Shown in pieces: positions 6,074 through 32,317 of a DNA stretch of 64,000 nt. Made by a program: the position numbers and the translations under genes. Origin of the DNA: an uncultured Clostridia bacterium (GTDB lineage: Bacteria > Bacillota > Clostridia > TANB77 > CAG-508); assembly GCA_947626555.1 (NCBI GenBank), contig CANQSP010000001.1, positions 42-64,041 on the forward strand, given 5' to 3'. Below the pieces are notes generated by a model. That model had not been told where the DNA came from, did not search any database, and saw nothing but the letters and a program-made list of their open reading frames with translations. Position 1 is the first letter of the stretch. Each line of letters starts with the position of its first letter.

Positions 6074-6097
6074 GAACAAAAAGGAAGGTGAAAAAAA

Positions 6098-6622: not shown

Positions 6623-6691
6623 TATAATTTTACTATTTAAATGTTAAATTTAAATTATAATTAATATAAAAATATAAATTATGTATAATAA

Positions 6692-14560: not shown

Positions 14561-14589
14561 TTGACTTTTGTCATAAAATTTAATAAAAT
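14561..14589 (+). promoter_or_regulatory. promoter of giant surface-protein gene (TTGACT-17-TAAAAT) overlapped by palindromes
   Basis: -35 14561-14566, -10 14584-14589; inverted repeat GTCAGCATT...AATGTTGAC (14540-14566) and TGACttttGTCA (14562-14573) overlap -35. Confidence 0.5.
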
Positions 14590-14637: not shown

Positions 14638-17600
14638 ATGATGGAGAATATGAAAAAAATAACATTTTTTTTAATTACTATGATTCTATCTTTAGCTGTT
14701 GCAACAAGTGTAAATGCAGTAGAAAATATAGAATTAAAAACTTCTAAAGATAAAGTAAATTTAGGAGAAGAAATTATAGTTTCATTAGACTTAAATATAG
14801 AAAATAAAGAGGAAACATCTTTATATGCTTATACTGCGAAGTTAAGTTATGATAAGGATGTTTTTGAAGTAATTGATGAATCTGATTTTGAAGAAAGTGA
14901 AAATTGGTCTGATATTACTTACAATAAAAGGAATAACAAATTTGCATTGATTAATAAAAAAGGAGAGACCGACGAAAGTATTTTAAAAATCAAGCTAAAA
15001 GTTAGAAAAAATGCTACCCCTGGAAATACTTCTATTACTGTAAATAGTATTACTGCATCAGATGGAAAAAAAGACATACCAATAGAAGGCAAAACAGTTG
15101 ATGTTATGGTAATAAAAACTGGGCTAGCAGAAGGTGAAAGCATTCCGTTAAATAAAACAAATGAAGTTGTAGAAGATACATCCAATATTGAAGTGGGAAA
15201 AGATTTCTCATGGATTGCTTATATACTTATAGCCTTAATAATTGTTATATTCATATTCACAATCTATTATTATATAAGTAGTAAAAAAAGAAATACTTCA
15301 AAAAATAAGAGAATCACAATTATGGTAGCATCTATTATAATTTTAGTTATTTTATTAATTACTACGATAATTCTGTTAACTGATAAAAAAGCAGATGTTA
15401 ATAAAGACGGTAAAGTTGATTATGATGATACAAAAGATATAATAGAATATTTGTTAGAAATAAAAAATCCACAAGAAGATGAAAATTTAAGTGATAAAGA
15501 TATAAACAAAGATGGACAGATTACAATAGGGGATGTTGCAGCATCTACTAATCAAGCAACAAATCAAGACTATCATGCTAATGTAAATGGCTCAAATAAT
15601 AACAGTAATACTAATGGAAGCACTAATAATCAAAGTAGTGAAGCTAATGCGAGCAAGCCAAATAACCCAAGTAATTCAACTAATCCAAGCGAACCAAGTA
15701 ATCCAAACGAACCAAGTAACCCAAGTGGTTCAACTAATCCAAATGAACCAAGTAATCCAACCAATCCAACCGAGCCAAGTAATCCAGCCAATCCAAACGA
15801 ACCGGACAATCCAGATAATCCAAACATCCCAAGTGAACCAACTAAGCCAGATAATCCTAATACCCCAAGTGACCCAACTAAACCAGATAATCCAAACACT
15901 CCAAGTGAACCTACTAAACCAGAAGAGCAATACTCATCAGTTGTAGAAACTACAACAGTAAGTAACCTTACTCCAAAGAAAGGTCAAGAAATAACATTAG
16001 ATTTATATATTGATGTAACACCATATACTGAAATTGAAGCTATTGAAATAGAAGGAAAATCGTATAAAGTAACAAAGGTTGAAGAACCTTCTGTAAGAAT
16101 AGCAAGTCTTGTACCAGTGAAATTTAAAGCAATTGCATCAAACATAAACGGAGGAGAAAATAATCATTATAAGGTAACAATACAAGCACCAACATCAGCA
16201 GGGGTACAGGATATACATATTACAAAAATAGAATTAGATAATGGAAAGAAAGTAAGTATAGACTATAGTGTTAAAGTAGATGTATTAAAAGATGCACCTA
16301 AAGTAAATGATTTTTATATTGATGATAAAAATGAGATTCCAGAAATAAGTTTTAACATTGAAGATTCAGATGGTGCTTTTAAAGGTGGAAAATTTAGTAT
16401 TACTGATGTAGATGGCAATGTTGTTTTTGTGTCAGAGAATATAAAAGTAGGTAAAAATACATTTAGTGCAAACTTAGAGGATGGAAAAACTTATCATTAT
16501 GATTTAGTAGCTGATTATGACTTAGACCATGATTATTTTGCTGAGAATATTGCGCCAAATCATAGAGAAGAAAAAGATTTTATAGATGATATTATTGAAG
16601 ATGAAGAAGGAAATCTTGAATTTACGAGAGAATATAATTTCTTAAGTAAAAATATGATGATAACTCCAGAAGTATCTAGTGAAGATGAACTAATACTTTC
16701 ATTTGAAAATGGTGCAGAATCATATTATAAAGTAACTTATGTAAAAGTAAATGGAGTAGAATATGAAGTTAAATTAGAAAATGGAAAATATATAACCAAA
16801 TTAAAGAAAGGAAGCAAAGGAAACAATACAATAACAGTAGAATCTGTTAAACTTGAAAATGGACATATTTTTACAGTTAATCAAACTTTTAGCTATGTAT
16901 ATTTAAAAGATAAACCAACAATAGGAGATATAGAAGTTAAATTAGAAGAAGGTAATTTGCATGTAAGTGCTCCTATAACGGACCAAGATAATACAATAAA
17001 AAGTGTTCAAGTTAAAATTAAAGACCAAAATGGAAATGTAATTAAAACAGAGAAATTAAATAAAAATTCAAATAATGGTTTATATTTGAATGATATAGAA
17101 ATAGATGTATCTGGAAAATATACAGTAGAAGTAGAAGTAACCTATGATTTAGGAAATGGAAAAGAAAATAAAGTAAGTAAAATATATGCTAAAAATATTA
17201 CTGAACCAATAAAGGCAACTATTTTAAAAGAACAATCTAGTATGGCTGAATATGCTACTAGAGGGAAAAAAGTAGAAGCAATTTATACTATAGAAGATAA
17301 TACAGAAAAAGAAGTAACCCATATAACCATAAATGGAGTAAAAATACCTGCAACTAAGTTAAGCGATGAAAAATATAAAGTAGAATTTTTAGCACCTAGT
17401 GAAAGACCACAAAATGGTAAAACTACAATAATAGCATCAGAATTATATTATAAAGATGAAGTAGAGCCAATAGAAGTAGAATGTGCATTTGAAATTGAAA
17501 TATTAAAATCTGTACCTACTATTGAAGATTTGCATATAAATGATTCAAGAGAAAAGCCAGAAATAAATTTTGTGCTTGTTGATGCTGAAAATGCCTTTAT

Positions 17601-20600
17601 AAGTGGAAAAATAATTATTACAGATGAGAATGAAAATAAAGTTACAGAAATAGAAATGTCTTTAATTGATACAGAAAATGGAATACAAACATATACCTTA
17701 GACAATATAGAGCAGGGTAAAGGCTATGAAATATCAATAGAAGCAACATACGATTTAGATATAGATAGAACAAATAATAAAAATGAAGAAACCAAAATAA
17801 TTAAAACTCATAAATTTAAAATTGAAAAAGATTATGAATTTACATTAAGTGATTTTAAATTTATAAACATAGAAAATGAAAAAGTAACTTTACAATTTAC
17901 AAGCACCAATAAAACAGAATATATTATTGAAAAAGTTGAAATAGAATTAAACGGAATTAGACATGAATATAAAGTTATAAAAAACGGAGATAATTATACA
18001 ATAGAAATTCCATTAACTGATATAAATAATACAAGAACAGAATTGACACTAGAAGAAGTTATATTAAGTAATTTAAAAGAATTTAACAGAGAAACGGATT
18101 TTGAATTATTTAGTAGCTTAGAAAAACAAGTAATATTTAAAAACAAGCCTACGGCAACAATAGGAAATGTTATAGTAAATGAAGAAGAAACACAGATAAT
18201 TGTAAGCAATATTAGTATAGAAGATACAGATAATGCATTACTTTCAGATAAACTTACAGTACAACTAAGAGATATAAATGGTACAGTTGTGGATAGTAAA
18301 AATATTAGTAGAACTGATACAGCAGTAACATTTGATTATAATAAAGCAGGAGACTACAAAGTAGTCATAGTTGCAGATTATGATATTGTTGACTTACAAA
18401 ATCATACAAATGAAGAGATTGCACAATCATCTATTATAACAATACATATAAAAGCAGAAATTATTAACAGCGAATTTAATAAATATCCAAACAAGAAAGA
18501 GCAAATGACAATAAAATACACAATAAAAGACAACACAAATAAAGATGTAACAGCAATTTATTTTAATGATATAAGGGTTGATGCAGTAAAACTAGGAGAA
18601 GATTTATATGAAGTAGTATACATTGCTCCAACAGAACATGGAAAGAAGTCAATTACTGCTAGTGAATTATATTATGGTGAAGAAGAAGTAGATGTAGTTG
18701 ATAAGAATGATGAAATAGATGTATTAAAAGATAAGCCAATAATTTCTAATTTTAAAGTTGTTACAGCAGGAGATAAGCCTAAGGCAACATTCGATATTAT
18801 AGATACTGATAATTCTTTTGTAGACGGAAAAATTATTATTAAAAATAAGGCTAATGATTCAATTAAAGAAGTTATAATTGTAAAAAATGATACAGGAATT
18901 ATAACAGAATATGAACTAGAAATTGATTCATTTGAACAATATGAAGTTAAATTACAAATAAATTATGATTTAGACTCTAATATTTTACCTTCACAAGGAG
19001 AAAATGATAATGTAGGAATACTTGAACAAGTTATAGAAATTGTTGAAGATATACAACCTTCTAAATTACAAATAAATGACTTAAAACTAAAAGAGGTAAA
19101 TGAAGAACAAGAAACAATAACACTAGAATTTACAAGCAAAAATCCATCTAAACATCATATAGCAAAAGTTAAGTTAGAGGGAAAAGAAGAAGAATTCTAT
19201 GTAACATATGATGAAGCAAGCGATACATATACATTAGTTTTACCATATAATAATGGAGAAAAAGAAACAATAACAATAGAAAAAGTTATTTTGGATAATG
19301 ATACACAAGATGAAGTAATTCTAGAGGAAAAAGCAAGTATCGAATTATTTAAAACAAAGCCTACAGTTCAAGAATTACGAGCTACTTATAATAAAGAAAC
19401 CAAAGTTATAAGTGCAACATTACTTATTAAGGATACGGATAATATAGTTACTAAGGCTTATGCTAAAGTTATTTGTCCAGATGGCGAAGAAAAGACTCAA
19501 GAAGAAGTTACATTAGAAAATAAATCAGGAGAGGTAACATTTGAAAATATAACTAAGGCTGGAACATATAAAGTTGAAATATTAGCAGACTTTAATGCAT
19601 TAGATGGAAAAATACATAATTCCGAAACTCTTGAATTAGAAGATAATGTAACAGATGAAGTATATGTTGAGATAAAAGTTAATGCAGTTTCTACAATAGA
19701 ACTTTCTAATAAGTATCCAGAAAAAGGTGGAACTGTTCAAGTAACATACAACATTGAAGACAATACAGATGAAAAAATAACAGCTATAGAGTATGGTGCA
19801 ACACATATAGCAAATAATCTTGAAGAGATAGACGGAAATTATAAAGCTATTCTTGGAGAGGAATTTACAGCTCAAGCAGGTGTAAGTACACTAAAAATAA
19901 CAAAAATACATTATGGAGATAAAATAATAGATGTAACACATGAGGGTGACAAGATAGATGTTTTAAAAGAAAAAATTTCATTTAATGAAAATACATTTAC
20001 TTCTACAGAAAATTTAGAAAAATCAACTGTTGCATTTACATTTGATATTATAAACCCTGATAATGCAATTATAGATGGAACAGCTTCTGTAGGAGAAAGT
20101 ATACAGAATTTTTCAAAAGCTCAGAATACATTAATATTTAATGTGGAAAAAAATAAAACATTAGAATTATTAATTAAAGTAAATTATGACAGAGATACAA
20201 ACACAATAGTTGAAGATGAAAATAAAAATGTTGAAACGTTAACAGTTGTAAAAGAATTTTCTTTAGATGAAGATATGGAATTTGATATAACGGATATATA
20301 CACAAGTAAAGTAAATACTGAAACATTACAAGAAACAAACACACAATACTTTAATAAAGGAGAAGAATTTAGAGTAAACTTTAAAACTGCTACAAATTCA
20401 GCACTTAAAGTATCCTACGTAACAATTGGTGGAACGAAATATAATGCACAAGAAATAAATAGTGAAGCAAACATAGAAGAAGTTGAAGGATACTATGCAA
20501 TTGTTAAAGCATCAGAAAGTGAAAAAGGAGTAAAAGAATTAAACATAGATTCTGTTACTTTATCAGATGGAAAAGTTATAACACTTGAAAATAAAAACTT

Positions 20601-23600
20601 AAAATATGAAATATTAAAAGATAAGCCTATTATAAATACATTTAATGTAAGCAATATAGGAACAGATGTCAATATTTTAGTAGATGTACTAGATCCAGAT
20701 GATGCATTAAAAGAGACGGCAAAAGTCACAATAACAGACAATTCAAATGGAGAAGAATTATTTAATAGCCCAATTATAAAAGGTACAAATCATTATGAAT
20801 ATAAAGCAGAACTTAATAAAGAATATTTAATTAAAGTTATAAATGGATATGACTTGGATTCAAATGAACTAAATGTTGGAAGTGAAAACTTAAATGTATA
20901 TGAAGAACTATATACACAACAACTTTTAAAAATAGAGGATACGGCTAAATTTTCAGCAGTTCATGTAACAGTACCAAGTATTGTAACAGATGATGATGAA
21001 AACGTAATACTAACTTTTGAAAATGTATACCAATCAATTTATGATGTTAAAGAAGCTACTATAAATGGAATTCCATATACAGTCACAAAAGAAGATAATG
21101 TATACAAAGTAGTTTTAGAAAAAGGAGAAAAAGGTGACAATATATTAAAATTTACATCAGTAAAGCTTTCAAATGATTCTGTATTTGAAGTTAATAGAAA
21201 TATAAAATATTTATATGAAAATGTAAGACCAATAGCTGAAAATATAGAAATAAATGAAGTTCGTAGTGAAGATATGGTAAAAGCTACATTTACAGTTAAT
21301 GATAAAGATGAAGCAACTGAAAAACTATATGCAAGGTTATACAATAGTAATGGAGTTCAAATAGAAGAAACTGAATTAGACAAAAATGCTACAGAAGTTA
21401 GTTTCTCATTGCCAAAAGCATATAAATATAGTATTGATATTTTAGCTGATTATGATAAAGGTAATGGAACAAATTATGAAAAAATTGTAATTGGTTCTAA
21501 AGTTCACGAAGTTGGACCGGTTGTAGAAATAACTGAATTTAAAACAGAAGATAAAAAATTCTTTGAAAAAGATGAAGAAAACGTAAAACTTATATATAAA
21601 ATAAATACAAATATAGATGAGAATGTAAGACTATTTAGAATAAATGGAGTAACATATGATGCAGAAAAAATAGATACGGATACTTATAGAGTGTTATTTG
21701 ATGGTGTTGGAAATCAAGGAGGAACTTTAACTTTAGAAGTACAACAGATTGTATTTGAGAAGACAATGCATAAATTAGAAAACTATTATAAGTCAACTAT
21801 TGAAGTCTTGAGGCAAAAGCCAGAAGTTTCACAGGTAATAGCCGAAAATAAAGATGGCAAATTCGAACTATCATTTAAAATGAAAGATGATGATGAGGCT
21901 CTAACAGGAAACATTAATTTAAGAATACTAGACGAAGAAGAACAAGTTTATTTAGAAGAAAATATACAATTAAATGATAAACAATATAATAAAATTATAG
22001 ATAATTTACAATTTAATAAGGATTACAAGATAATTATAACTGCAAATTATGACTTAGATGGTGATTTAACAGGTAATGGTAATGAATATACAGGTGAGCA
22101 ACTTTTAGAACAAACAATTAAGGTTGAAAATAATATAGAGTACAACTTTAAATTTAGTGATTTTGGACTTATGACTCCAGATATGCCATTAGCATGGCCA
22201 GGATATCCATTATATTTACAATTTATAAGTACAAACGATTCTCAATATAAAGTAGACTCAATTGTTTTAAATGGAGTAGGATATAAAGTTGAAGAAATGT
22301 ATGGATTATATATGATATCAGAATATATTCCTGAAATAAAAAGTGGTATTCAAGAAGTTAAAGCAGAAAAAGTAATATTAAGTAATGGTAAAGCTTTTGA
22401 TATAAATGGTGAGGAAAATAAAGCTAAATTTGAAGTATTAAGAGATTATCCTAAGGCTAGTATTTTATCAATGACAGAAGATACAGAAAGAGGAAAACTA
22501 AAGATTGTATTTCAAATTCGAGATGATTTTAATACAATTAAGGATCCTACAGATATTAAAGTTTTAATATATAGTAGTGACTCAGATGAACCATATCAAA
22601 CCAAAAAAATCTCTATAGGTGATACAGAAGTTGAACTTGATACACCATTAGCCTCTGAATATGTTATAGAATTTTTAGCTGATGCTACAGTTTCAGAATT
22701 GATGCCTGAATATAACCAATTAAACTCTAAATTAGTTGAAAAAACATTTGAAGCTAAACAAAGTACTGTTATTACAGAAGTAAAACCAGAGACATATTAT
22801 CCTGAAAAAGGTGCAATTTTTGGAGTAAATTATAAGATTTTAACATTAAGTAAGAAAAAGGTAGTTGCAATAACTATAAATGGACAGAGAAGTATAGTTG
22901 ATGAAAATGGTACAAATACTTATAAAGCATGTCTTTCAGCAAATAATGAAGCAGGTTTAATGACATTTACAACATCTACAATAGAATTTGAAGATGGGTC
23001 AACAGTTGATTTTAAAGCAAGTGACCAAGTAGAAGTAATAAAAGAATTACCAATAATTACAAATCTTACAAGAACAGATAATTTTGATGAAAAATCTGCA
23101 ACATTTACATTTAATGTAGAAGATCCTGATGGAATAATAAATGAAGGTGGAACATTTAAAGGAAGTATTAATGGGCAAAATAAAGATTTAAATATTGGTG
23201 AGAATTCTATGACATTTACAAATCTAACGCCTAATGCCAATATAGAGTTCAATGTTATTGGTACTTATGATTTAGATACAAATGCATTAAATAGTGTTAC
23301 AGGAAAGAATGATAATAATCATATAGGAGATAAAATCTTTACAAGACAATTCTTATTTACTGAAAATAATGACTTATATAGAGTTACAAAACTAGAAACA
23401 CAAAAAAATAATAAACAAAATACTTATTTTGAAAAGGATGATGAAATAAGACTAAAATTTAACTTTATTTGGGTAGATGACACATATGTAGAAAAAGCAA
23501 AAGTTAACGGAGAAACTTATGATGCTTACAAAAATGGCGAAGATTATACTATTGTTTTAAATAAAATGACCGATGTAGGAATACATGAAATTAAATTAGA

Positions 23601-26600
23601 AAGCATTAAATTAAGCAATGGTAAAGAAATACCACTTAAAGAAAATAATATTGTAAAAATAGAAATACTAAAAGATAAACCTTCAATGAGTAAATTTAGT
23701 TTTAATGATAATGACAAAGATATTTCTTTAAATATTACTATATTAGACAAAGATAATGCTATTCCAGAAAACAATCAACTTGATATTGAAGTACTTGACG
23801 AAAATAATAAAAATGTTTGTTCTGAAAAATTAAATGTAGGAGAAAACACGGTTACATTTAATAAAAATGATAGTAATAGATATTTAATAAAAGTTATAGC
23901 TTCTTATGATAGAGATACAAATGAAATAGATCAAAACTCTAATGAAATTAAAAATGGTGAAATTGCATTTGAAAACATTAATATAAATGAACGTAAATAT
24001 GAATTAAAAGACATTACAAATATTGATGTATACCACTTCTCAGAAGACGGAAACGTTGAAAAGACTAATACTATAGAATATAGTAAAATAAATAGCTATA
24101 AAGAAACTTATATAGTAAAAGTAGAAATGAAATCTCTACCATCATATTATGGAAAGATAGAAGAATATAGGAATGAAAATGGTAAATTAGTATTTACTCT
24201 AAGTAATGAAAATATAATTTTATACAATAATGATGAACCAACTGAAAAATGTGACATAGTTTATGGAACAATAGTAGGTGATATAGCTACTAAAGAAGAC
24301 ATCTATTCTTTAAATGATAGTAGTCCAGAAGGACTATATATTCCTGATTATAATAGAATTAGCAAATTACAAGGATTTAGTACAGAGAAACATAAATTAT
24401 ATCATAACTTAAATAAATTAATGCCATTTTATGATTCTAAATACTTAGTAAGAGACGGAGAAAAAATAGAAAAAGAAAATATATTAAATACAAAACTAAT
24501 AAAAGAAGTAATTCCTGTAAATAAAAATGGTGAAGCGGTTATTGCAGTTTCAACAGATGATTACCAAAATTTATCAAGCATAAAAGTAATATTTGATGAT
24601 GACGAAATGAAAAAATATAATATTGAGTTTAATGAATATTATAGTGGAATAGCATCATATATTATTCCAGAACTAGGAATTGAATATAACTATAATAATT
24701 ATGTTATAAAATCAGATGCTAGAATTATAAAGGATTTAAAAGATACAATAAGTAAATTCAACTATAGAACTGATTTAGATGTATTAACAGCAGATTTAGA
24801 TAGTAGAATTTATAGAGAATATTACGAAGATACATTAAAACAAGAATTTGATGATTTTATTAAAAAATTATTAGTTAGCAAAAATTATAGTGTAGTAATA
24901 GAAAGTGATACCTATAACGAACTAATTAAAAAGGACTTATTAAGTGAAACAACTTTAATGAAATGGATATATGCATACAATTATATTCATCGTTGGTATT
25001 CTTTCGATATAGATGGCTTAAAGATGAGTGATATACTTGTATTTAAAGGTAATTTATTAAATAAACCTACAACAATAGAAAGCATATCTCAAGATGTTTT
25101 AAGCGGAAATATAACTACCTATTCAACAGGAGAATTCTATAAAAATAAATTAGCACAATACACAGGACAACAAGATGTATTTGAATTTGTAAAATATTAT
25201 GTGCAAAAATATGCGGAAGACAAAAATATAGAGACTTGGTATAGAGATAATGTTCCAGGTATAGTTGTAGAAGCACAATGTATAAATAAAGAAGTACAAT
25301 ATTCACTATGGCATAATTTAAGTATAAATGTAGGAAAGTATAATAAATATGTACTTGTACTTCTAACACTTCCAGATGATGCAGCATATATAATTTCAAA
25401 TCCAACATCTATATTGTTCGGATCTCAAAGAACATACGTACAAAATCCTAAAGATCCAGTACAAAGAGCTAAGTTACAAGCATTAGCTGATAGTTTTGCT
25501 AATGATGTATCAAAATTCTTCTCAACACTTTCAACATTTGTATCAATTGAAGAGATGAATAGAATGAGTACGGTGCATTTAGATACATTATTAACATATG
25601 TTGATGGAGGTACTGGTTCAAGAGTTGTTCAAAAACCTTTAACGACACAAGAGCCATTCCATAAAAACTTCTGCGAAGTTTTAAATGATTGGACAATTTT
25701 GAAAGGAGCTGGAGCATACTGTGGCGGAGGTAGTGTATACTTTGTTTATGAAGATGCATTACGTGCATACTCAGTATGGACTCATGAAAATGCACACTTA
25801 GGAGCATTCCAGAATTTGCTATGTGGTGGATGCAGAAATAGAATTATAAGAGAAGATATGCCTGATGGAAATATAACGCAAGGTTCAGGAGATGGTGGAA
25901 TAAGCTTTAACTTAACTTATGATTATGACAAAAATGCTTTAGTTACTACAAATTTAACAACGGAAAGAATAAATACTCCTGAAAAAATGAAGCAATTCTA
26001 TAGCAGATTGATAGATACAAGTGATTTCTTAGATTATATTGAAGCTAAAGCATTCTTACAGTTAAATGCTGAACAACAAGCTAAATTATGCTTACAAGTG
26101 TCTTATCCGAAAGGATCAGGTCAATATATAGATGGAGAAATAACTAAATACGAAAAAATAGATAAAGAAAAAATTGAAGCAATGCATTTAGATGATGTTC
26201 ATGATTTATGGACAAATCAAATAGTAATGGTGCCTGGTGTAACAGAAAGAACAATGACACCAAGTCTGTATGGAGGAGATTCAATATACACAAGACATTG
26301 GTATCAACCATATAATGACAATGGTAGAGCTGATTCATATAGTTTTAAATGGTTAGCATTTGAAATGATTGCAACAGGAGGATATAAGGAGGGCTATAGA
26401 TATTGGTATGGTAGCAACGGAGGAAAAATAAAAAATGATTTACAATCATTAAGAGCAATTACTAAAAATGAAAATATGACATTTGAACAATATAAAATAG
26501 ACAGATATAATAAGATGCAGAATAACTGGGAGAATATGAAATTCTTTGATGCAACTGAAGTACAAAAAGAATACTTAGAAGCATTAAAGAAAGATGCAGA

Positions 26601-28215
26601 AGAAAATGATAATAAACTTACAAATAGTACAGCTGTTAAAAGAAAATATTATTATATGGTAAAACAAGGAACAGATGATTTTAGACAAGAGATATTTGAC
26701 TATGTGCCAGAAAAAGTTGAATCTAAAGAGTATGTTTCTACAGCAAAAGAATTTGTTGATGCATGTAAATTAAAATCAAGTAGCACAATTTACTTAGAAA
26801 AAGATATTGATTTATCTGAATACGATACAGGAAGTGCTATTGTAACAAATGCATTTACTGGAACAATTGAAGGTCAAAATAATACAATAACAGGACTTAA
26901 ATTACCATTATTTGCATCATTGTCAGGGGCAACTGTTAAAGATTTAATTATAGACGATTCTACTATAATTATAAATAGTACAGATATAGGAGCATTAGCT
27001 AAAACAATGACAGGAACAGAGTTAAATAATATTACTATTAAAGGTTTATTAATGAGTTCTAAAAATAACAAACAAGTGGGTGCTTTAGTTGGTTCTGCTT
27101 ATAACTCAAATATTAAAGATTGCCATGCTATTAATGTAAATGTATTTGGTTCAACTAGAACAGGAGGACTTATAGGATATGCTGTAAATAATTGTACTAT
27201 TGAGGAGAGTACTTCGAATGCAACAGTAACAGCTACAGCTGATGCAGCGGCAGTACTTGTAGGAGAGTGCAACAGTTCAACTATAAAAAATTGCTATGCA
27301 ATTGGAAGTATTAATGTATCTAGTGCAGCAAATTATGCAGGTGGAATTGTAGGCTGGGCTGATGGCACATCTATACATAATAATTATGCTAAAGTTTCAG
27401 TATCTGCAGTTAAGAGTAATTCGGGTGTATTTAGTGGTACTATTAGAAATAAATTTGATGTTCAAAATAATATTGCTATAGCAAACGGACTTTCACATGT
27501 TAATATAGGGCTATTCGATAACGATACTGAAGCAAGTAAAATGAATAGTAGTGATACATTTAAAAATAATTATGAAATAGCAAATGGATTTACAGGTAAA
27601 ACAAGTAGTGCAAGAGGAGTAAAAGCAGAAAAAATTAAATCAATGACAATACAAGAACTTACAAAGGAATTCATGCAAGAAAATTTACATTGGGATGAAA
27701 AAATATGGAACTTGGATTCTCTTGAGGAAGGTGGCTTACCAACATTAAGAAATCACGATCCAAATAAATCAGAGAGTGCATTAATATTAATGAATGAATC
27801 TAATAAATTAGATTCACTAGATGAGTTAAAAGTTAATGATGAAGAAGTTGTGAATACTATTGAAGACACAAACATAGTCGACACTAATACGCTAAATACA
27901 GCAAATGAAATAAATAATACAAATATGCTAAATGAGGCAAATGAGACAAATGAAATAAATAATACGAATGTGCTAAATGAAGCGAGTACGACGAATGAAA
28001 TAAATAATACGAATATGCTAAGTGAAGCAAGTACGACGAATGAAATAAATAATACGAATATGCTAAGTGAAGCAAATACGACGAATGAAATAAATAATAC
28101 AGATATTCTAAATGAAAAGAATACAAACAACATAGTAGATAGCAATACTTTGGAAGAGAAAAGCGAAAATGAAGTAATTAGTGATACAGTTAATAGTATA
28201 GAAACAACTGAATAA
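14638..28215 (+). CDS. giant (4525-aa) multidomain surface protein: signal peptide, cohesin-like domain, two TM helices, type-I dockerin, P/N-rich linker, ~13 tandem ~290-aa modules, HExxH zinc-metallopeptidase (M26/IgA-protease-like) region with GLUG-type Gly-rich repeats, C-terminal 15-aa tandem repeats
   Basis: MKKITFFLITMILSLAVATSVNA signal (probable start ATG 14650); DVNKDGKVDYDD / DINKDGQITIGD Ca-loop pairs; recurrent ...VLKDKP...YDLD module boundaries; WTHENAHLGAF; GGLIGY/GGIVGW/GALVGS repeats; single uninterrupted ORF. Confidence 0.85.
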   Translation: MMENMKKITFFLITMILSLAVATSVNAVENIELKTSKDKVNLGEEIIVSLDLNIENKEETSLYAYTAKLSYDKDVFEVIDESDFEESENWSDITYNKRNNKFALINKKGETDESILKIKLKVRKNATPGNTSITVNSITASDGKKDIPIEGKTVDVMVIKTGLAEGESIPLNKTNEVVEDTSNIEVGKDFSWIAYILIALIIVIFIFTIYYYISSKKRNTSKNKRITIMVASIIILVILLITTIILLTDKKADVNKDGKVDYDDTKDIIEYLLEIKNPQEDENLSDKDINKDGQITIGDVAASTNQATNQDYHANVNGSNNNSNTNGSTNNQSSEANASKPNNPSNSTNPSEPSNPNEPSNPSGSTNPNEPSNPTNPTEPSNPANPNEPDNPDNPNIPSEPTKPDNPNTPSDPTKPDNPNTPSEPTKPEEQYSSVVETTTVSNLTPKKGQEITLDLYIDVTPYTEIEAIEIEGKSYKVTKVEEPSVRIASLVPVKFKAIASNINGGENNHYKVTIQAPTSAGVQDIHITKIELDNGKKVSIDYSVKVDVLKDAPKVNDFYIDDKNEIPEISFNIEDSDGAFKGGKFSITDVDGNVVFVSENIKVGKNTFSANLEDGKTYHYDLVADYDLDHDYFAENIAPNHREEKDFIDDIIEDEEGNLEFTREYNFLSKNMMITPEVSSEDELILSFENGAESYYKVTYVKVNGVEYEVKLENGKYITKLKKGSKGNNTITVESVKLENGHIFTVNQTFSYVYLKDKPTIGDIEVKLEEGNLHVSAPITDQDNTIKSVQVKIKDQNGNVIKTEKLNKNSNNGLYLNDIEIDVSGKYTVEVEVTYDLGNGKENKVSKIYAKNITEPIKATILKEQSSMAEYATRGKKVEAIYTIEDNTEKEVTHITINGVKIPATKLSDEKYKVEFLAPSERPQNGKTTIIASELYYKDEVEPIEVECAFEIEILKSVPTIEDLHINDSREKPEINFVLVDAENAFISGKIIITDENENKVTEIEMSLIDTENGIQTYTLDNIEQGKGYEISIEATYDLDIDRTNNKNEETKIIKTHKFKIEKDYEFTLSDFKFINIENEKVTLQFTSTNKTEYIIEKVEIELNGIRHEYKVIKNGDNYTIEIPLTDINNTRTELTLEEVILSNLKEFNRETDFELFSSLEKQVIFKNKPTATIGNVIVNEEETQIIVSNISIEDTDNALLSDKLTVQLRDINGTVVDSKNISRTDTAVTFDYNKAGDYKVVIVADYDIVDLQNHTNEEIAQSSIITIHIKAEIINSEFNKYPNKKEQMTIKYTIKDNTNKDVTAIYFNDIRVDAVKLGEDLYEVVYIAPTEHGKKSITASELYYGEEEVDVVDKNDEIDVLKDKPIISNFKVVTAGDKPKATFDIIDTDNSFVDGKIIIKNKANDSIKEVIIVKNDTGIITEYELEIDSFEQYEVKLQINYDLDSNILPSQGENDNVGILEQVIEIVEDIQPSKLQINDLKLKEVNEEQETITLEFTSKNPSKHHIAKVKLEGKEEEFYVTYDEASDTYTLVLPYNNGEKETITIEKVILDNDTQDEVILEEKASIELFKTKPTVQELRATYNKETKVISATLLIKDTDNIVTKAYAKVICPDGEEKTQEEVTLENKSGEVTFENITKAGTYKVEILADFNALDGKIHNSETLELEDNVTDEVYVEIKVNAVSTIELSNKYPEKGGTVQVTYNIEDNTDEKITAIEYGATHIANNLEEIDGNYKAILGEEFTAQAGVSTLKITKIHYGDKIIDVTHEGDKIDVLKEKISFNENTFTSTENLEKSTVAFTFDIINPDNAIIDGTASVGESIQNFSKAQNTLIFNVEKNKTLELLIKVNYDRDTNTIVEDENKNVETLTVVKEFSLDEDMEFDITDIYTSKVNTETLQETNTQYFNKGEEFRVNFKTATNSALKVSYVTIGGTKYNAQEINSEANIEEVEGYYAIVKASESEKGVKELNIDSVTLSDGKVITLENKNLKYEILKDKPIINTFNVSNIGTDVNILVDVLDPDDALKETAKVTITDNSNGEELFNSPIIKGTNHYEYKAELNKEYLIKVINGYDLDSNELNVGSENLNVYEELYTQQLLKIEDTAKFSAVHVTVPSIVTDDDENVILTFENVYQSIYDVKEATINGIPYTVTKEDNVYKVVLEKGEKGDNILKFTSVKLSNDSVFEVNRNIKYLYENVRPIAENIEINEVRSEDMVKATFTVNDKDEATEKLYARLYNSNGVQIEETELDKNATEVSFSLPKAYKYSIDILADYDKGNGTNYEKIVIGSKVHEVGPVVEITEFKTEDKKFFEKDEENVKLIYKINTNIDENVRLFRINGVTYDAEKIDTDTYRVLFDGVGNQGGTLTLEVQQIVFEKTMHKLENYYKSTIEVLRQKPEVSQVIAENKDGKFELSFKMKDDDEALTGNINLRILDEEEQVYLEENIQLNDKQYNKIIDNLQFNKDYKIIITANYDLDGDLTGNGNEYTGEQLLEQTIKVENNIEYNFKFSDFGLMTPDMPLAWPGYPLYLQFISTNDSQYKVDSIVLNGVGYKVEEMYGLYMISEYIPEIKSGIQEVKAEKVILSNGKAFDINGEENKAKFEVLRDYPKASILSMTEDTERGKLKIVFQIRDDFNTIKDPTDIKVLIYSSDSDEPYQTKKISIGDTEVELDTPLASEYVIEFLADATVSELMPEYNQLNSKLVEKTFEAKQSTVITEVKPETYYPEKGAIFGVNYKILTLSKKKVVAITINGQRSIVDENGTNTYKACLSANNEAGLMTFTTSTIEFEDGSTVDFKASDQVEVIKELPIITNLTRTDNFDEKSATFTFNVEDPDGIINEGGTFKGSINGQNKDLNIGENSMTFTNLTPNANIEFNVIGTYDLDTNALNSVTGKNDNNHIGDKIFTRQFLFTENNDLYRVTKLETQKNNKQNTYFEKDDEIRLKFNFIWVDDTYVEKAKVNGETYDAYKNGEDYTIVLNKMTDVGIHEIKLESIKLSNGKEIPLKENNIVKIEILKDKPSMSKFSFNDNDKDISLNITILDKDNAIPENNQLDIEVLDENNKNVCSEKLNVGENTVTFNKNDSNRYLIKVIASYDRDTNEIDQNSNEIKNGEIAFENININERKYELKDITNIDVYHFSEDGNVEKTNTIEYSKINSYKETYIVKVEMKSLPSYYGKIEEYRNENGKLVFTLSNENIILYNNDEPTEKCDIVYGTIVGDIATKEDIYSLNDSSPEGLYIPDYNRISKLQGFSTEKHKLYHNLNKLMPFYDSKYLVRDGEKIEKENILNTKLIKEVIPVNKNGEAVIAVSTDDYQNLSSIKVIFDDDEMKKYNIEFNEYYSGIASYIIPELGIEYNYNNYVIKSDARIIKDLKDTISKFNYRTDLDVLTADLDSRIYREYYEDTLKQEFDDFIKKLLVSKNYSVVIESDTYNELIKKDLLSETTLMKWIYAYNYIHRWYSFDIDGLKMSDILVFKGNLLNKPTTIESISQDVLSGNITTYSTGEFYKNKLAQYTGQQDVFEFVKYYVQKYAEDKNIETWYRDNVPGIVVEAQCINKEVQYSLWHNLSINVGKYNKYVLVLLTLPDDAAYIISNPTSILFGSQRTYVQNPKDPVQRAKLQALADSFANDVSKFFSTLSTFVSIEEMNRMSTVHLDTLLTYVDGGTGSRVVQKPLTTQEPFHKNFCEVLNDWTILKGAGAYCGGGSVYFVYEDALRAYSVWTHENAHLGAFQNLLCGGCRNRIIREDMPDGNITQGSGDGGISFNLTYDYDKNALVTTNLTTERINTPEKMKQFYSRLIDTSDFLDYIEAKAFLQLNAEQQAKLCLQVSYPKGSGQYIDGEITKYEKIDKEKIEAMHLDDVHDLWTNQIVMVPGVTERTMTPSLYGGDSIYTRHWYQPYNDNGRADSYSFKWLAFEMIATGGYKEGYRYWYGSNGGKIKNDLQSLRAITKNENMTFEQYKIDRYNKMQNNWENMKFFDATEVQKEYLEALKKDAEENDNKLTNSTAVKRKYYYMVKQGTDDFRQEIFDYVPEKVESKEYVSTAKEFVDACKLKSSSTIYLEKDIDLSEYDTGSAIVTNAFTGTIEGQNNTITGLKLPLFASLSGATVKDLIIDDSTIIINSTDIGALAKTMTGTELNNITIKGLLMSSKNNKQVGALVGSAYNSNIKDCHAINVNVFGSTRTGGLIGYAVNNCTIEESTSNATVTATADAAAVLVGECNSSTIKNCYAIGSINVSSAANYAGGIVGWADGTSIHNNYAKVSVSAVKSNSGVFSGTIRNKFDVQNNIAIANGLSHVNIGLFDNDTEASKMNSSDTFKNNYEIANGFTGKTSSARGVKAEKIKSMTIQELTKEFMQENLHWDEKIWNLDSLEEGGLPTLRNHDPNKSESALILMNESNKLDSLDELKVNDEEVVNTIEDTNIVDTNTLNTANEINNTNMLNEANETNEINNTNVLNEASTTNEINNTNMLSEASTTNEINNTNMLSEANTTNEINNTDILNEKNTNNIVDSNTLEEKSENEVISDTVNSIETTE
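15655..15930 (+). repeat. ~18-bp tandem repeats encoding PSNP(N/T)EP linker
   Basis: ccaagtaatccaaacgaa-type units, in-frame inside giant gene. Confidence 0.7.
27904..28128 (+). repeat. five 45-bp tandem repeats encoding NEINNTNMLSEASTT
   Basis: Near-identical 45-bp units at C-terminus of giant gene. Confidence 0.8.
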
Positions 28216-28247: not shown

Positions 28248-28282
28248 AAACAAAAATTCCAGTGAGAGATTGCTGGAATTTT
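28248..28282. terminator. terminator between convergent giant gene and cotJC
   Basis: AAATTCCAG-loop-CTGGAATTT stem + TTTTGC. Confidence 0.65.
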
Positions 28283-28330
28283 TGCTTTGGGTTTCCTATT
28301 ATTTTAGGACACCTTCTTATTTTAGTAAAA

Positions 28331-28777
28331 TTATTGGCAATTACAACTATTATTGTTGTCGCACATTTTTTTAGAGCAATTAGACATATAGAATTTCTTT
28401 TCAGCCAATTTATCTTGTACTCCACGAAGAGCTTCTCCAAATCTTTGGAAGTGAACAATTTCTCTTTGACGTAAGAAACGAAGTGGATCTAATACATCTG
28501 GGTCATCTCTACATAAATCTATTAATTTTTCATAAGTTGCTCTTGCTTTTTGCTCTGCTGCTAAGTCTTCTTGAAGGTTTGCAACAGGGTCACCTTTACA
28601 AGCAATATATGCTGCTGTCCATGGGGTTCCAGAAGCGGATACTGGGTATACATCTACACCATGGTCTGTATAATATGCGCCTAATCCTGCTTTTTCTATA
28701 TCTTCAGGACCAACACCTTCTGTTAATTGATGAACTATTGAACCTACCATTTCTAAGTGAGCTAATTCTTCTGTACC
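28331..28777 (-). pseudogene. cotJC: cotJC 3' segment (Mn-catalase-like spore coat protein CotJC, residues ~71-218), separated from its 5' segment by a 5-kb element
   Basis: Translation begins abruptly at HGTEELAHLEMVGSIVHQL... (Mn-catalase signature) with in-frame TGA immediately upstream; no start or RBS. Confidence 0.8.
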
Positions 28778-28919
28778 ATGATGTTGTCAATCATAATAAT
28801 CCTAAAAAAAGTAATACTTTCTATCTATTATTGTCTAAGGAAAAATTACACAATTAAAAGTATCTTTTTTATCACTATTACCATATTATATATTACTATT
28901 TATGAAAGAAGGAGATTTT

Positions 28920-29729
28920 ATGTTTTTTATTCCATCAAATGATAATGCAAATATAGCGGTTTATGAATTAAATCCAAATGCATATAAAACGATAGTTTTA
29001 ATACATGGTTGGCCTTTATCACACAAAATGTTCGAATATCAGCTACCAGATTTAATAAGAAATGGTTATAGAGTTATAAGTATTGATATAAGAGGATTTG
29101 GAAACTCTGATGTAACAAGTGATGGATATAATTATAATCAATTTGCAACTGATTTATATTATGTAATATATGCTTTAAATTTATCAAATTTTGATTTACT
29201 AGGTTTTTCAATGGGAGGAGCAATTGCTACAAAATACATGCAAATGTATAATGGATATGGTGTTAGAAAATTATGCTTATTAGATTCTTCTGTTCCTTCA
29301 TATTCAAAAACAACAAATAATCCATATGGTCAAACAATACAATCTACCAATGATTTAATAAATCTAGGATATAATGATAGACCAGTTTTAAATGAAAATT
29401 TCGGAAATATGTTTTTTTACAAAAGACCTTCTGATGCGTTTAAAAATTGGTTTCAAAATTTAAGCAATAGTGCTTCTGGAATAGGAGAAATGAATTCTTT
29501 AATTGCTCTTAGGGATGAAGATATATTTGATTCGTTAAAATATATTCATATTTCAACAGCTATTTTTCATGGAAAGGAAGATAGAATATGTCCTTTTCCT
29601 ATGGCAGAAATTATGCATAATAATATTCGTTCTTCAATTTTGTTTCCACTTGAAAATGCTGGGCATGGTGCATTTTATGACGTTAAAGATGAATTTAATA
29701 GGTCTTTAATAAAATTTTTAAATTATTAA
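28920..29729 (+). CDS. alpha/beta-hydrolase fold protein (element cargo)
   Basis: HGWPLS oxyanion region, GFSMGG nucleophile elbow, C-terminal His; AAGGAGA RBS before ATG 28920. Confidence 0.7.
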   Translation: MFFIPSNDNANIAVYELNPNAYKTIVLIHGWPLSHKMFEYQLPDLIRNGYRVISIDIRGFGNSDVTSDGYNYNQFATDLYYVIYALNLSNFDLLGFSMGGAIATKYMQMYNGYGVRKLCLLDSSVPSYSKTTNNPYGQTIQSTNDLINLGYNDRPVLNENFGNMFFYKRPSDAFKNWFQNLSNSASGIGEMNSLIALRDEDIFDSLKYIHISTAIFHGKEDRICPFPMAEIMHNNIRSSILFPLENAGHGAFYDVKDEFNRSLIKFLNY

Positions 29730-29801
29730 TTTAATTATGAAAATCCGTACCATAATGTTGTCAATTAAAAAAATTTAGGGCTATTTGCTGTATAAAATAT
29801 A

Positions 29802-30335
29802 AGTTCACTGAGTGTACTTAATGAAATACACTTAGTGAACTTTTTATTTTATGCTTTAATTTTATATTCAACACTTTTTTCTTCTAATAACTTGAAATTA
29901 CAACTTACAAATATGGGGGATACTTTTATAAGTACCCCCTAATTTTTCAGGAAACTCGTTTATAGTTAAACTAAAGGCTCGTTTCTAACCTAATGTTCAA
30001 TAGGATATTTGTTTATAGAATTTTCATTCTAAAGGCTCATATCTAACCTAATGTTTAAATTGCACTTGTTTATGAAGTTAATCAAAGGTTCGTGCTAACC
30101 TAGTTTATTTGATAAATTGCTTTACCAATATTAGTATATTCATTATACTATATTTTATTTACAAAATCAAAACTTATACACAAATTCTAATTCAAAATTT
30201 GTATTCACTTAGTGTATTTTTTTCAATTCATTTAGTGAACGAAATTATTACACCTAGTGAACTTTTCGGTTCATTTAGTGAATTTTAGTACTCTGATAAG
30301 TTTTTTTTAGCAATACATTCGGTGAATTATTGCAT
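29802..30335. promoter_or_regulatory. array of 7 palindromic operator-like sites (consensus TTCACTtAGTGAA) plus three ~50-bp iterons (29957-30112)
   Basis: Sites at 29803, 29827, 30205, 30228, 30252, 30270, 30316; iterons GTTTATnnn...AAAGGCTCGTnTCTAACCTAATGTT x3; 900-bp non-coding tract upstream of recombinase. Confidence 0.5.
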
Positions 30336-30475
30336 CATTTTTGCATAACTTTTTTGCTCACTTCTCAATTCTCTTTGCCTTTTATCTTCTTTGAATTCTT
30401 CTACTGTCCATTTCTTTACTTGTCTTGGGCATTTTTTTGTGTTTATTTTCATAAATTTTAAAGAGGCGATTTAAT

Positions 30476-30613
30476 ATGGTAATAGAAGAATATACGATTG
30501 AAAATACAAAGATAAAATTTTATGATGACTGTATTGTAGCAGATACTGTTACTCAAAAAGAATATATAGATAACATTATTATTAATTTAATACAAAATTC
30601 TCCTTTGTTGTAA
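30476..30613 (+). CDS. small hypothetical protein (45 aa) upstream of recombinase; candidate directionality/regulatory factor
   Basis: AAAGAGG RBS 9 nt before ATG; MVIEEYTIENTKIKFYDDCIVADTVTQKEYIDNIIINLIQNSPLL. Confidence 0.3.
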   Translation: MVIEEYTIENTKIKFYDDCIVADTVTQKEYIDNIIINLIQNSPLL

Positions 30614-30676
30614 TTTGGCATATTTTCTTATATAATGTTTACAAGTTAAAGACAAATTACAAGGAAAGGAGGAAAT

Positions 30677-32239: not shown

Positions 32240-32317
32240 AGTCTTTGATTATTTTGTTGAATGATAGTAAAAAATATAGTAAAATAAGTAAAATATAATT
32301 TATAAAGGGAGAAAAAA

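Follow-up and report, generated by a model that had tools for sequence, protein, structure and literature searches.

A giant M26-family protease with its own cohesin and dockerin flanking a membrane hairpin in an uncultured gut Clostridia bacterium

In an uncultured gut Clostridia bacterium, we identified an intact, real gene for a 0.5-MDa surface zinc protease in which a cohesin and a type-I dockerin flank a pair of transmembrane (TM) helices. On balance, we favor an explanation, which we hold to be somewhat probable as a whole, in which the product is an extracellular M26 protease rooted in the membrane, with a cohesin and a dockerin that recognise each other as a cognate pair. The window is the whole stretch of DNA that was analysed (64 kb); the gene and its parts are located on it as follows, all on the forward strand.

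14561..14589 (+), promoter-like site TTGACT-17-TAAAAT upstream of the gene, a consensus match only (consensus scan)
14650..14718 (+), signal peptide (MKKITFF...SVNA), with a hydrophobic N-terminal segment at aa 5-27
14722..15117 (+), cohesin domain, aa ~29-160 (Pfam, AF2, Foldseek)
15118..15201 (+), acidic flexible tether from cohesin to TM1, aa 161-188 (pLDDT <50)
15202..15378 (+), TM hairpin by hydropathy: TM1 aa ~189-212, basic loop SSKKRNTSKNKR, TM2 aa ~225-247
15385..15567 (+), type-I dockerin with Ca-loop repeats DVNKDGKVDYDD and DINKDGQITIGD (Pfam, family alignment)
15568..15924 (+), low-complexity linker, aa 311-429 (N 26%, P 23%, S 15%)
15925..24270 (+), stalk: a lone beta-sandwich-like segment (aa 430-548) and 13 two-domain FN3-like modules
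24334..26715 (+), M26 catalytic region, matching residues 436-1148 of a solved IgA1-protease chain
25783..25854 (+), active site H3716-E3717-N-A-H3720 with E3739 as putative third zinc ligand (alignment to IgA1 protease)
26716..27672 (+), beta-helix/GLUG domain, homologous to the N-terminal beta-helix of IgA1 protease but placed after the catalytic region
27673..28212 (+), acidic N/E/T-rich tail with 4.7 repeats of 15 aa (TRF, composition)
28251..28284 (+), terminator-like hairpin 36 nt past the stop codon, with a 15-pair stem followed by a T-rich tail

The sequence-only reading had described a single 13.6-kb ORF of 4525 aa at 14638-28215 (+), and it does run without interruption. The true start is likely the ATG at 14650 (MKK...) rather than 14638 because homologues and the public gene call begin at MKK; this gives a product of 4521 aa and 511 kDa, predicted to be very acidic (pI 4.6). 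A 64,287-bp NCBI contig is recorded as encoding an identical product of 4521 aa, and a 43,480-bp ENA contig from another sample (ERZ27249684) carries an intact ORF of the same length, with 3 amino acid substitutions, 7 nucleotide mismatches, and no gaps. These two assemblies from different samples argue against an assembly artefact or a pseudogene, as does the fact that 4525 sense codons could not remain open by chance at ~27% GC, and the architecture and catalytic motif are kept across dozens of orthologues. Repeat collapse is not a concern because the 13 long modules are not repeats at the DNA level; with pairwise module identities of just 13-32%, repeats able to collapse are absent. What speaks for an artefact or pseudogene is that several relatives carry frameshifts or an in-frame TAA and that L042, a third assembly of the same species at a low coverage of 4.6x, has a 1-nt deletion in an A5 run (window 20522-20526). 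Altogether, we regard it as very improbable that the ORF is anything other than a real expressed gene, and the contrary reading as largely refuted already.

The protein comprises, in order, the signal peptide, cohesin, TM1, TM2, dockerin, N/P/S-rich linker, lone beta-sandwich-like segment, 13 modules, M26 catalytic region, GLUG beta-helix, and N/E/T-rich tail. While a whole-protein Pfam scan returned only Glug and a borderline Dockerin_1, and a whole-protein NCBIfam scan only sub-threshold TM and low-complexity noise, the Cohesin, Dockerin_1, M26, and GLUG profiles proposed as a check all matched when the protein was scanned in segments, which is how the cohesin and M26 regions were found. The cohesin match (PF00963, aa 36-155) scored 42.1 bits (E=1.3e-10; cut-off 24.1), and the AF2 model of the domain has a pLDDT of 80-93 across most of its length. 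Its best Foldseek matches were the C. perfringens cohesins 2jh2, 2vo8, and 2w1n (target TM-score 0.78-0.82 for 2jh2 and 2vo8), and 47 of 50 among the matches listed are cohesins (target TM-score up to 0.82). The dockerin match (PF00404, Dockerin_1, aa ~251-300) scored 30.1 bits (cut-off 22.9), and its two Ca loops, DVNKDGKVDYDD and DINKDGQITIGD, are conserved throughout the family alignment; AF2 places dockerin helices at aa 262-272 and 297-308 with a pLDDT of only ~67-74. Hydropathy, HMMs, and fold search thus agree with the signal peptide, cohesin, paired TM helices, and type-I dockerin that had been read from the sequence. Also as read, the full protein has no LPxTG-like motif ([LIVSN]Px[TSA][GANS]).

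AF2 models the hairpin as helices at aa 192-218 and 222-247, and the 12-aa loop between the hydropathy-defined segments, SSKKRNTSKNKR, has a strongly basic composition. This character is shared by the family: in 92 members, the median net charge of the loop is +4 and the flanks on either side are net negative, which places the loop in the cytoplasm and the cohesin and dockerin both outward. The two modules had been described as lying on opposite sides of the hairpin; this is so in the linear sequence but not in the predicted topology, where they share the outer membrane face. The dockerin begins ~4 residues past TM2 (~3-12 aa across the family), and the tether between cohesin and TM1 varies more widely in length (10th-90th percentile about 14-80 aa).

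Beyond the dockerin, the linker contains tandem arrays of 9, 27, and 36 nt (15654-15923) and is a putative wall-spanning segment. The ~13 tandem two-part modules noted earlier were counted as exactly 13, each 196-217 aa long, starting at aa 549, 755, 955, 1166, 1362, 1570, and 1775 (modules 1-7) and at aa 1992, 2191, 2390, 2600, 2800, and 3010 (modules 8-13). The structural check on the modules gave an FN3-like fold, each module being a pair of FN3-like sandwiches, and the resulting ~27 FN3-like domains may form a stalk of roughly 100 nm. Among the Foldseek matches of the modules are SiiE and the ice-binding adhesin MpIBP, which likewise project a functional head on a long stalk of tandem beta-sandwiches. 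Both are adhesins of Gram-negative bacteria, secreted by a T1SS, that have BIg-type repeats rigidified by Ca and lack a protease head, in contrast to the FN3-like pairs, Sec export, N-terminal membrane hairpin, and catalytic head of the protein described here. At the C-terminus, an array of five repeats had been reported; the array exists (27904-28116, period 45 nt, 90% matches), but TRF counts 4.7 copies.

The catalytic region supports the earlier call of an M26-type HExxH protease. The Peptidase_M26_C profile (PF07580/PF05342 = family M26) matched aa ~3337-3601 at 59.5 bits (cut-off 22), and phmmer aligned aa 3240-3922 (~680 residues) with residues 436-1148 of the S. pneumoniae IgA1 protease chain (PDB 6xjb/7jgj/6xja, E=7e-37 to 6e-36). 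The only HExxH motif in the protein, HENAH at aa 3716, and E3739 align with the HEMTH and downstream Glu of that enzyme, for which the zinc-ligand and catalytic roles have been described (PMC9637739). Based on catalytic homology and the HEXXH + Glu motif, we assign the protein to peptidase family M26. GLUG repeats as in IgA1 protease had also been noted; the domain is present (three Glug matches and the tail of Peptidase_M26_N, profile 175-250, 40.2 bits, aa ~4065-4250), and aa 4026-4308 align by phmmer with residues 102-397 of the IgA1 protease chain, but it follows the catalytic domain, the reverse of the streptococcal order. Neither Pfam segment scans nor phmmer found a GLUG/beta-helix copy before the catalytic region. 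More distant relatives have beta-helix copies on either side of it, which implies loss of the N-terminal copy in this protein and in L007/L008.

The closest well-studied enzymes are the streptococcal and Gemella M26 proteases (IgA1 protease ZmpA, ZmpB, ZmpC, ZmpD; 6xja/6xjb/7jgj, 7uvl), which share the catalytic homology with its HEXXH and downstream Glu and the homologous GLUG beta-helix. They are likewise surface proteins of great size, whose N-terminal anchor consists of a signal peptide and a pair of hydrophobic segments, with variable repeats coming after it; two N-terminal TM segments have been described for the streptococcal Zmps (PMC3518915). In our protein, by contrast, a cohesin occupies the place of the LPXTG segment, a dockerin comes after TM2, the catalytic region precedes the beta-helix, and the repeat region is a 2,800-aa FN3-like stalk. 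An N-terminal LPXTG is listed as universal for metallo-IgA1 proteases (PMC9637739), and compared with a metallo-IgA1 protease (ZmpA) in the strict sense, the protein lacks both LPXTG and G5: no Pfam match to G5 was found, with modules 3-12 (aa ~1022-3132) covered by the less sensitive whole-protein scan only. It aligns only distantly with the solved IgA1 proteases, and given the low identity (sparse alignments) and the absence of G5 and LPXTG, the substrate is not transferable from IgA1 protease.

The architecture had been called unusual. This holds against the literature that we searched for cohesins or dockerins combined with M26/IgA1 proteases or TM anchors, in which it was not found described, but it is not a one-off: many uncultured gut bacteria have the cohesin/two-helix hairpin/dockerin module. 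A search with the N-terminal module reached 188 protein clusters at E<=1e-10, and the full order of cohesin, two TM helices, dockerin, modules, and M26 was found at 29 genome loci, in MAGs with labels such as Lapin and MGBC; at least 18 of the MAGs with these proteases are labelled Lapin. The same order is the commonest architecture among 154 surveyed family sequences, which nearly always have one cohesin and one dockerin, and proteins of this M26 branch span 2,400-6,700 aa. The best GTDB locus shares 79% identity with the window protein over the N-terminal module; no synteny was seen between the flanks of the window and the closest GTDB loci. Frameshifts and an in-frame stop in several relatives raise the possibility that the gene is frequently off or in decay; the in-frame stop in L039-L041 is not explained by an alternative genetic code, as the codon is TAA, not TGA. 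Two relatives, L036 and L001, encode the cohesin-TM-TM-dockerin unit on its own, in a gene of 314-316 aa located 76-77 nt upstream of a gene with a signal peptide. The downstream gene encodes a 4547-aa M26 protease in L036, while in L001 just its first 152 aa are on the contig; no cohesin or dockerin was found in the readable parts of either. The position of a separate anchor gene directly upstream of a protease gene indicates that the anchor is functionally tied to the protease.

We used direct coupling analysis (DCA) on 120 sequences to look for coevolution of the cohesin with the dockerin. The top couplings between the two domains (2.06 and 2.04) were stronger than the best intradomain couplings and than those in each of 20 pairing shuffles, and they map to positions 8-11 and 17 of the second dockerin repeat, where the canonical recognition helix lies. 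At D146/T296, the swaps are charge-compatible, with D/E paired with T/S in 81 sequences and K/R with D in 9. In a third-domain control, cohesin-to-stalk couplings reached 1.36, compared with 1.75 and 1.18 for cohesin-dockerin, so that only one cohesin-dockerin pair is clearly above background. Meff is small (about 85-110) and phylogeny can mimic coupling, which makes this signal underpowered and suggestive only. There is an experimental precedent in Ruminococcus bromii Amy4, whose own cohesin binds its own dockerin (PMC4611034). Amy4 likewise has one cohesin and one dockerin on one enzyme polypeptide, but it is a soluble secreted GH13 amylase with no TM hairpin and no membrane-adjacent modules, and it is part of a multi-protein network, binding dockerins of other amylases as well. 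With weak support from coevolution, it is plausible that the cohesin and dockerin of one protein form a cognate pair.

The same 1:1 co-occurrence and the same coevolution signal would also suit the self-polymerising arrangement suggested at the outset, in which the cohesin binds the dockerin of the next molecule and the proteases polymerise or cluster into a surface coat. Amy4 offers a precedent for multimerisation via its own cohesin and dockerin (PMC4611034), and the stand-alone anchors of L036 and L001 could join such a lattice. However, a tether of ~20-30 residues beside a membrane-pinned dockerin would give a very high local concentration for intramolecular binding, which should compete with chain formation unless geometry forbids it, and we consider such daisy-chaining a genuine possibility but an unlikely one. 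Another arrangement, in which signal peptidase cuts behind TM2 and the freed dockerin-stalk-protease rebinds the cohesin held by TM1, would account for both modules being on one polypeptide. It would mirror the secretion in two fragments that has been proposed for streptococcal IgA1 protease: the Zmps have a signal peptide, LPXTG, and two TM segments, the second proposed to be a cleaved signal peptide (PMC3518915). AxA-like sequences do follow TM2 in some mouse-type relatives (for example ...VAAATLSF... in P0020 and ...YSFALKG... in P0004), but in the protein studied here and its close relatives TM2 is joined to the dockerin by ...LLTDKKA|D, which puts Lys at -3, and the -1 residue varies in the family (A/S/I/V/Y/T/P), making a poor signal-peptidase I site. 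Judged on these -3 and -1 residues, the case for cleavage behind TM2 is weak; moreover, stand-alone anchors would shed a useless free dockerin, and we consider this arrangement improbable.

We likewise put little weight on docking to partners encoded elsewhere in the genome, in the manner of a cellulosome or "mucinolysome." Gut Clostridia do have non-cellulosomal cohesin-dockerin networks with dockerin-bearing peptidases (PMC12997984; M26 is absent from the main text of that paper), the relative L010 has an extra small cohesin ORF ~3.3 kb upstream, and the inspected part of this genome is limited to 64 kb. C. perfringens toxin complexes and Limousia mucinolysomes are likewise host-directed hydrolases of gut Clostridia that use cohesin-dockerin pairs outside plant-fibre degradation, and the C. 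perfringens GH84C/GH33 cohesins are the best structural matches of the window cohesin. Those systems join separate enzymes and multi-cohesin scaffoldins and are anchored by LPXTG, whereas the protein described here has just one cohesin and one dockerin, placed on either side of a membrane hairpin within the enzyme itself, and the near-strict 1+1 stoichiometry is unlike that of a hub or scaffold. The search for partner genes proposed earlier found no further cohesin or dockerin in the 64-kb window, which also lacks a multi-cohesin scaffoldin with several dockerin-bearing enzymes, and no conserved neighbour, partner, or accessory gene was found around the 29 related loci; scaffold-docked display, as first suggested, thus finds no support. 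In addition, a site at the membrane surface beneath the wall would be poor for recruiting secreted enzymes.

Under the explanation that we prefer, that of a cognate pair at the membrane, the protein, made by an uncultured, spore-forming, low-GC gut Clostridia bacterium, would be exported by Sec and lose its signal peptide, with the hairpin rooting the protein in the cytoplasmic membrane and its short basic loop in the cytoplasm. With both modules facing outward, the cohesin, tethered flexibly by ~30 residues, and the dockerin, fixed ~4 residues above TM2, would lie side by side on the outer membrane face. There they may bind as a cognate, calcium-dependent pair, either within one molecule, as the tether geometry favors, or between neighbours, and binding in cis or trans would clamp or cluster the anchor. 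The stand-alone anchors, which lack cargo, cannot be explained by a pure clamp for a covalently attached stalk. The 120-residue linker starting from the dockerin would cross the wall, and the stalk, estimated at ~100 nm, would bear the catalytic HEXXH+E head, for which the beta-helix may serve as a lid as in IgA1 protease. The head would cut an extended host substrate; by family analogy, candidates are the Pro/Ser/Thr-rich hinge of immunoglobulin A or a mucin-like glycoprotein.

To our knowledge, descriptions of M26 proteases come almost solely from streptococci and Gemella; as virulence factors of these bacteria, they disarm mucosal IgA or cut host glycoproteins. Our analysis adds a large, unstudied M26 branch in commensal-type gut anaerobes, whose hosts are apparently rabbits and mice. 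Rabbits have 14-15 IgA subclasses with divergent hinges, for which an arms race has been proposed as the explanation (PMC6082545, PMC10435986, PMC9247829). A joint reading, which we consider improbable, would combine three elements: the cohesin-hairpin-dockerin unit, as a new self-locking anchor fused to the enzyme or encoded by a separate gene, would replace sortase/LPXTG for giant M26 proteases of uncultured gut Firmicutes; the radiation of these proteases in rabbit-gut Clostridia, as seen in the Lapin MAGs, would represent the bacterial counterpart in the rabbit IgA arms race; and frameshifts in homopolymer runs would switch the gene on and off. Were the head to cleave IgA hinges, the family would provide a concrete microbial driver for the unusual diversification of lagomorph IgA. 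A two-helix hairpin that keeps a cohesin next to a dockerin on the surface of the membrane is an anchoring solution for which we found no description, and if the pair is self-cognate, cohesin-dockerin binding would here serve as part of a membrane anchor rather than for enzyme-complex assembly and could provide a compact, genetically encoded, self-locking display module for engineering.

The giant gene is a single uninterrupted open frame of 4525 codons on the plus strand (14638-28215), as the sequence-only reading had described it, encoding a product of 511 kDa with a pI of 4.6 and a net charge of about -297. A product of 4521 aa is likelier, because homologues and the public gene call start at the MKK of 14650. 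A promoter-like site and a terminator-like hairpin bracket the gene, which contains only two DNA-level arrays:

14561-14589, promoter-like site upstream of the gene
15654-15923, array in the proline-rich linker
27904-28116, array of 4.7 copies of 45 nt
28251-28284, terminator-like hairpin downstream of the gene

The 45-nt array had been counted as five C-terminal repeats, which its measured copy number does not bear out. The thirteen ~200-aa modules, 13-32% identical to one another, are undetected as DNA repeats. Re-sequencing, raised earlier as a check on the frame, did not refute it: the 64,287-bp NCBI contig has an identical protein on record, and a 43,480-bp contig from another sample (L037, ERZ27249684) has the same gene order and an intact 4521-aa ORF with 3 substitutions, with 7 nt mismatches and zero gaps to the window across 14 kb. 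Homopolymer indels do occur: in a third assembly (L042, same species, 4.6x coverage), the loss of one nt from an A5 run (window 20522-20526) splits the ORF.

Neighbouring genes are housekeeping (ribosomal-protein-sized ORFs, pyruvate kinase, Ffh, enolase, Dxs, CTP synthase), and the presence of cotJA/B/C marks the organism as a spore-former. An insert of about 5 kb interrupts the spore-coat gene cotJC (Mn_catalase; window 28331-34013) and looks like a skin-like sporulation intervening element, an arrangement common to L037:

28331-28750 and 33768-34013, minus strand, cotJC halves
28902-29729, alpha/beta hydrolase in the insert
30677-32239, large serine recombinase in the insert
32318-32821, ORF in the insert
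33085-33549, PBECR-type nuclease in the insert
33581-33662, skipping-rope RNA in the insert
33986-34710, cotJB and cotJA, after cotJC

Two paralogous ~390-aa ORFs (38756-39928 and 49668-50861) have only a weak partial Thy1 (ThyX-like) match (E=2.6e-10 and 2.6e-15).

Scanned whole against Pfam, the protein returned just Glug and a borderline Dockerin_1. Scanned as separate segments, it yielded every domain named in the sequence-only reading: Cohesin (PF00963, aa 36-155; 42.1 bits, E=1.3e-10), Dockerin_1 (30.1 bits), Peptidase_M26_C (59.5 bits), and the C-terminal part of the Peptidase_M26_N profile (40.2 bits) with three Glug motifs. HMM and fold together place the two binding modules among the cohesins and dockerins, with binding itself predicted.

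The head matched the Streptococcus pneumoniae IgA1 protease (IgA1P, 6xjb) in two pieces (phmmer against PDB, E=7e-37): aa 3240-3922 align with chain residues 436-1148, the catalytic part, and aa 4026-4308 with residues 102-397, covering the beta-helix (domain limits from PMC7695701). The single HExxH of the protein, HENAH at aa 3716, pairs with HEMTH of IgA1P, as E3739 does with the Glu further downstream. In the M26 family, these positions supply the zinc ligands and the catalytic Glu (PMC9637739). By catalytic homology and zinc motif, the protein belongs to peptidase family M26 and would work as its members do. The M26-type head with GLUG repeats stands in its catalytic homology, HENAH motif and Glug repeats, but its layout departs from IgA1P, in which the beta-helix is an N-terminal lid gating the active site (PMC7695701), whereas here it follows the catalytic region. 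A motif scan of the whole protein found no LPxTG-like motif, as first read, and Pfam scans found no G5 domain. Given these absences and the different beta-helix placement, the protein, whose activity is predicted, falls outside the ZmpA-type IgA1 proteases as strictly defined.

Hydropathy picks out the signal peptide and two further hydrophobic stretches, at aa ~189-212 and aa ~225-247. AF2, run on a 16-sequence alignment of the N-terminal module, produced a confident beta-sandwich at aa 29-159 (pLDDT 80-93 over most of it), two long helices at 192-218 and 222-247, and a dockerin with three helices (pLDDT about 70). Among the Foldseek matches listed against PDB, 47/50 were cohesins, the best being 2jh2, 2vo8 and 2w1n, non-cellulosomal cohesins of Clostridium perfringens glycoside hydrolases. 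The inter-helix loop is SSKKRNTSKNKR; across 92 relatives, its medians are 11 aa, 5 K+R and net +4, and the 15 residues flanking each helix on the outside are net negative. Basic loops lie on the cytoplasmic side under the positive-inside rule, so the loop is predicted to be cytoplasmic and both cohesin and dockerin extracellular. Thus the two modules, earlier placed on opposite sides of the hairpin, are so in sequence order but not in space. The first calcium loop of the dockerin begins about 3-12 residues (median ~4.5) past TM2, and the cohesin tether is disordered, at about 14-80 residues.

Beyond the dockerin, a 120-aa linker (N 26%, P 23%, S 15%) leads to a lone ~120-aa segment like the second half of a module and then to 13 two-domain modules. 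For one module, modelled by AF2 from an alignment of the 13 copies in the window, two all-beta domains were predicted (pLDDT 80.7), in agreement with the tandem two-part modules first noticed. With typical FN3 domains measuring roughly 3.5-4 nm, about 27 domains would make a stalk of about 100 nm.

The N-terminal module was found at 29 loci among 185,579 species genomes, all in metagenome-assembled genomes of 24-32% GC. Nineteen loci belong to 18 'uncultured Clostridia bacterium isolate Lapin-...' MAGs (41-79% identity), whose host we infer to be rabbit from the French word 'Lapin'; one is 'uncultured Clostridium sp.', and nine are 'uncultured Bacilli/Tenericutes/Mycoplasma' MAGs, several with MGBC names, which we take to denote the mouse gut catalogue. 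In almost all 29, the giant ORF begins with this module, and the common order (local phmmer, window segments as queries) is cohesin, hairpin, dockerin, modules, M26. More distant versions have beta-helices on both sides of the catalytic region; the upstream copy has been lost in the window protein and in L007 and L008, the relatives closest to it. An exhaustive HMMER search of aa 1-320 against 1.84 billion representatives returned 614 proteins at E<=1e-3, 188 at E<=1e-10 and 40 at E<=1e-30, many of them 2,400-6,700 aa. The commonest class among 154 sequences classified has one cohesin, two TM helices, one dockerin, modules and M26, while 12 are anchor-only proteins of ~300-345 aa. For two of these (P0014 and P0009), a stand-alone gene was confirmed:

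L036 (GCA_947631665.1) 4709-5653, P0014, signal peptide-cohesin-TM-TM-dockerin
L036 5729-15653, M26 protease gene (4547 aa), 76 nt downstream
L001 2171-3121, P0009, stand-alone anchor
L001 3199-3654, next gene, 77 nt downstream, first 152 aa only on the contig

Both stand-alone anchors are 314-316 aa. Besides a signal peptide of its own, the 4547-aa product carries a Big_2 domain rich in lysine, modules of the same type and Peptidase_M26_C; neither the 3,317 residues read nor the precomputed Pfam hits for the whole product showed a cohesin or dockerin. The L001 downstream gene has a signal-peptide-plus-basic N-terminus of the same kind. This fission/fusion pattern links the anchor functionally to the protease. 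At L010, a small ORF (5858-6658, 267-aa frame) ~3.3 kb upstream of the giant gene encodes a cohesin of the same family (59 bits), the only extra one seen near any family member. P0013 (474 aa, ENA metagenomic) fuses a same-type N-terminal cohesin and TM helix to an FtsX-like permease domain (PF02687), with no protease.

Several relatives are disrupted. At least five assemblies (L002-L005, L025) carry one extra A in an A-run that lies between cohesin and TM1 (L002 8897-8910), and frameshifts fall in the cytoplasmic-loop codons of L030 (A7 run, 10866-10872) and L038 (lysine-rich, ~1160-1195). The window gene has A7 runs at its start (14653-14659) and in the loop codons (~15279-15285). Frameshifts in relatives, like the A5 to A4 change in L042, fall at A-runs of the giant gene, and many short 'cohesin + TM' database proteins stop within the lysine-rich loop. 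This suggests that the runs are hot spots of slippage or serve phase variation; decay or low-coverage errors may instead lie behind the breaks. Three assemblies of one lineage (L039-L041) have an in-frame TAA exactly at a module boundary (L039 4354-4356; …DYTIKL*VLKDLP…), beyond which the reading frame stays open. Read-through could account for it, as could a split gene or a pseudogene; TGA recoding was rejected, the stop codon being TAA.

We argue that the cohesin and dockerin of one protein are likely partners, given their near-strict 1:1 co-occurrence and the geometry of a membrane-pinned dockerin beside a tethered cohesin. In mean-field DCA on 120 non-redundant pairs (Meff 110), the two top inter-domain couplings (2.06, 2.04) exceeded the top intradomain ones (1.71, 1.69) and the maximum of 20 pairing shuffles (1.67). 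The top pairs join repeat-2 positions 8, 9, 10, 11 and 17 of the dockerin, the stretch where characterised dockerins have their recognition residues, to cohesin residues 118-123, 137-146 and 99. At D146/T296, D/E occurs with T/S in 81 sequences versus K/R with D in 9, and acidic-acidic combinations are absent among the 14 commonest pairs. A fairer control included the first stalk domain as a third domain taken not to interact (91 sequences); cohesin-stalk couplings then reached 1.36 versus 1.75 and 1.18 for cohesin-dockerin, so the coevolution signal is suggestive, not conclusive.

The enzyme would thus be exported by Sec and rooted in the membrane by the hairpin, the long stalk projecting it through the wall and beyond, while its own cohesin and dockerin bind one another. 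Intramolecular closure is favoured because of local concentration; the main alternative is chaining through the cohesins and dockerins of neighbouring molecules, as for Ruminococcus bromii Amy4, in which the cohesin binds the dockerin of the protein itself (PMC4611034). Streptococcal Zmps, like the window protein, have two TM segments near the N-terminus, there following an N-terminal anchor motif, and for the second a role as a cleaved signal peptide has been proposed (PMC3518915). By analogy, cleavage behind TM2 could let a dockerin-headed enzyme re-dock onto membrane-bound cohesin, but this is less likely here given the residues before the dockerin (…DKKA|D, with Lys at -3), and the -1 residue varies across the family. 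Docking to an external scaffold, one of the two displays first proposed, has no support: the 64-kb window holds no second cohesin or dockerin, and no conserved accessory gene was found adjoining family members. None of these models accounts well for the stand-alone anchors.

Cohesin and dockerin in one protein are already known from Amy4 and adaptor scaffoldins; of their position around a TM hairpin at the base of a giant protease, the literature search found no description. The architecture is unusual in that sense, as first judged, but its order recurs in the 29 related loci. The M26 member ZmpA cleaves the IgA1 hinge, and substrates of most other members are largely uncharacterised (PMC9637739). 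In rabbits, IgA comprises 14-15 subclasses whose hinges diverge (PMC6082545, PMC10435986), and the resistance of rabbit hinges to IgA1 proteases is named as the topic of PMC9247829. With sampling as a confounder, one MAG project having supplied most loci, we speculate that the giant M26 family may be linked to the diversification of rabbit IgA.
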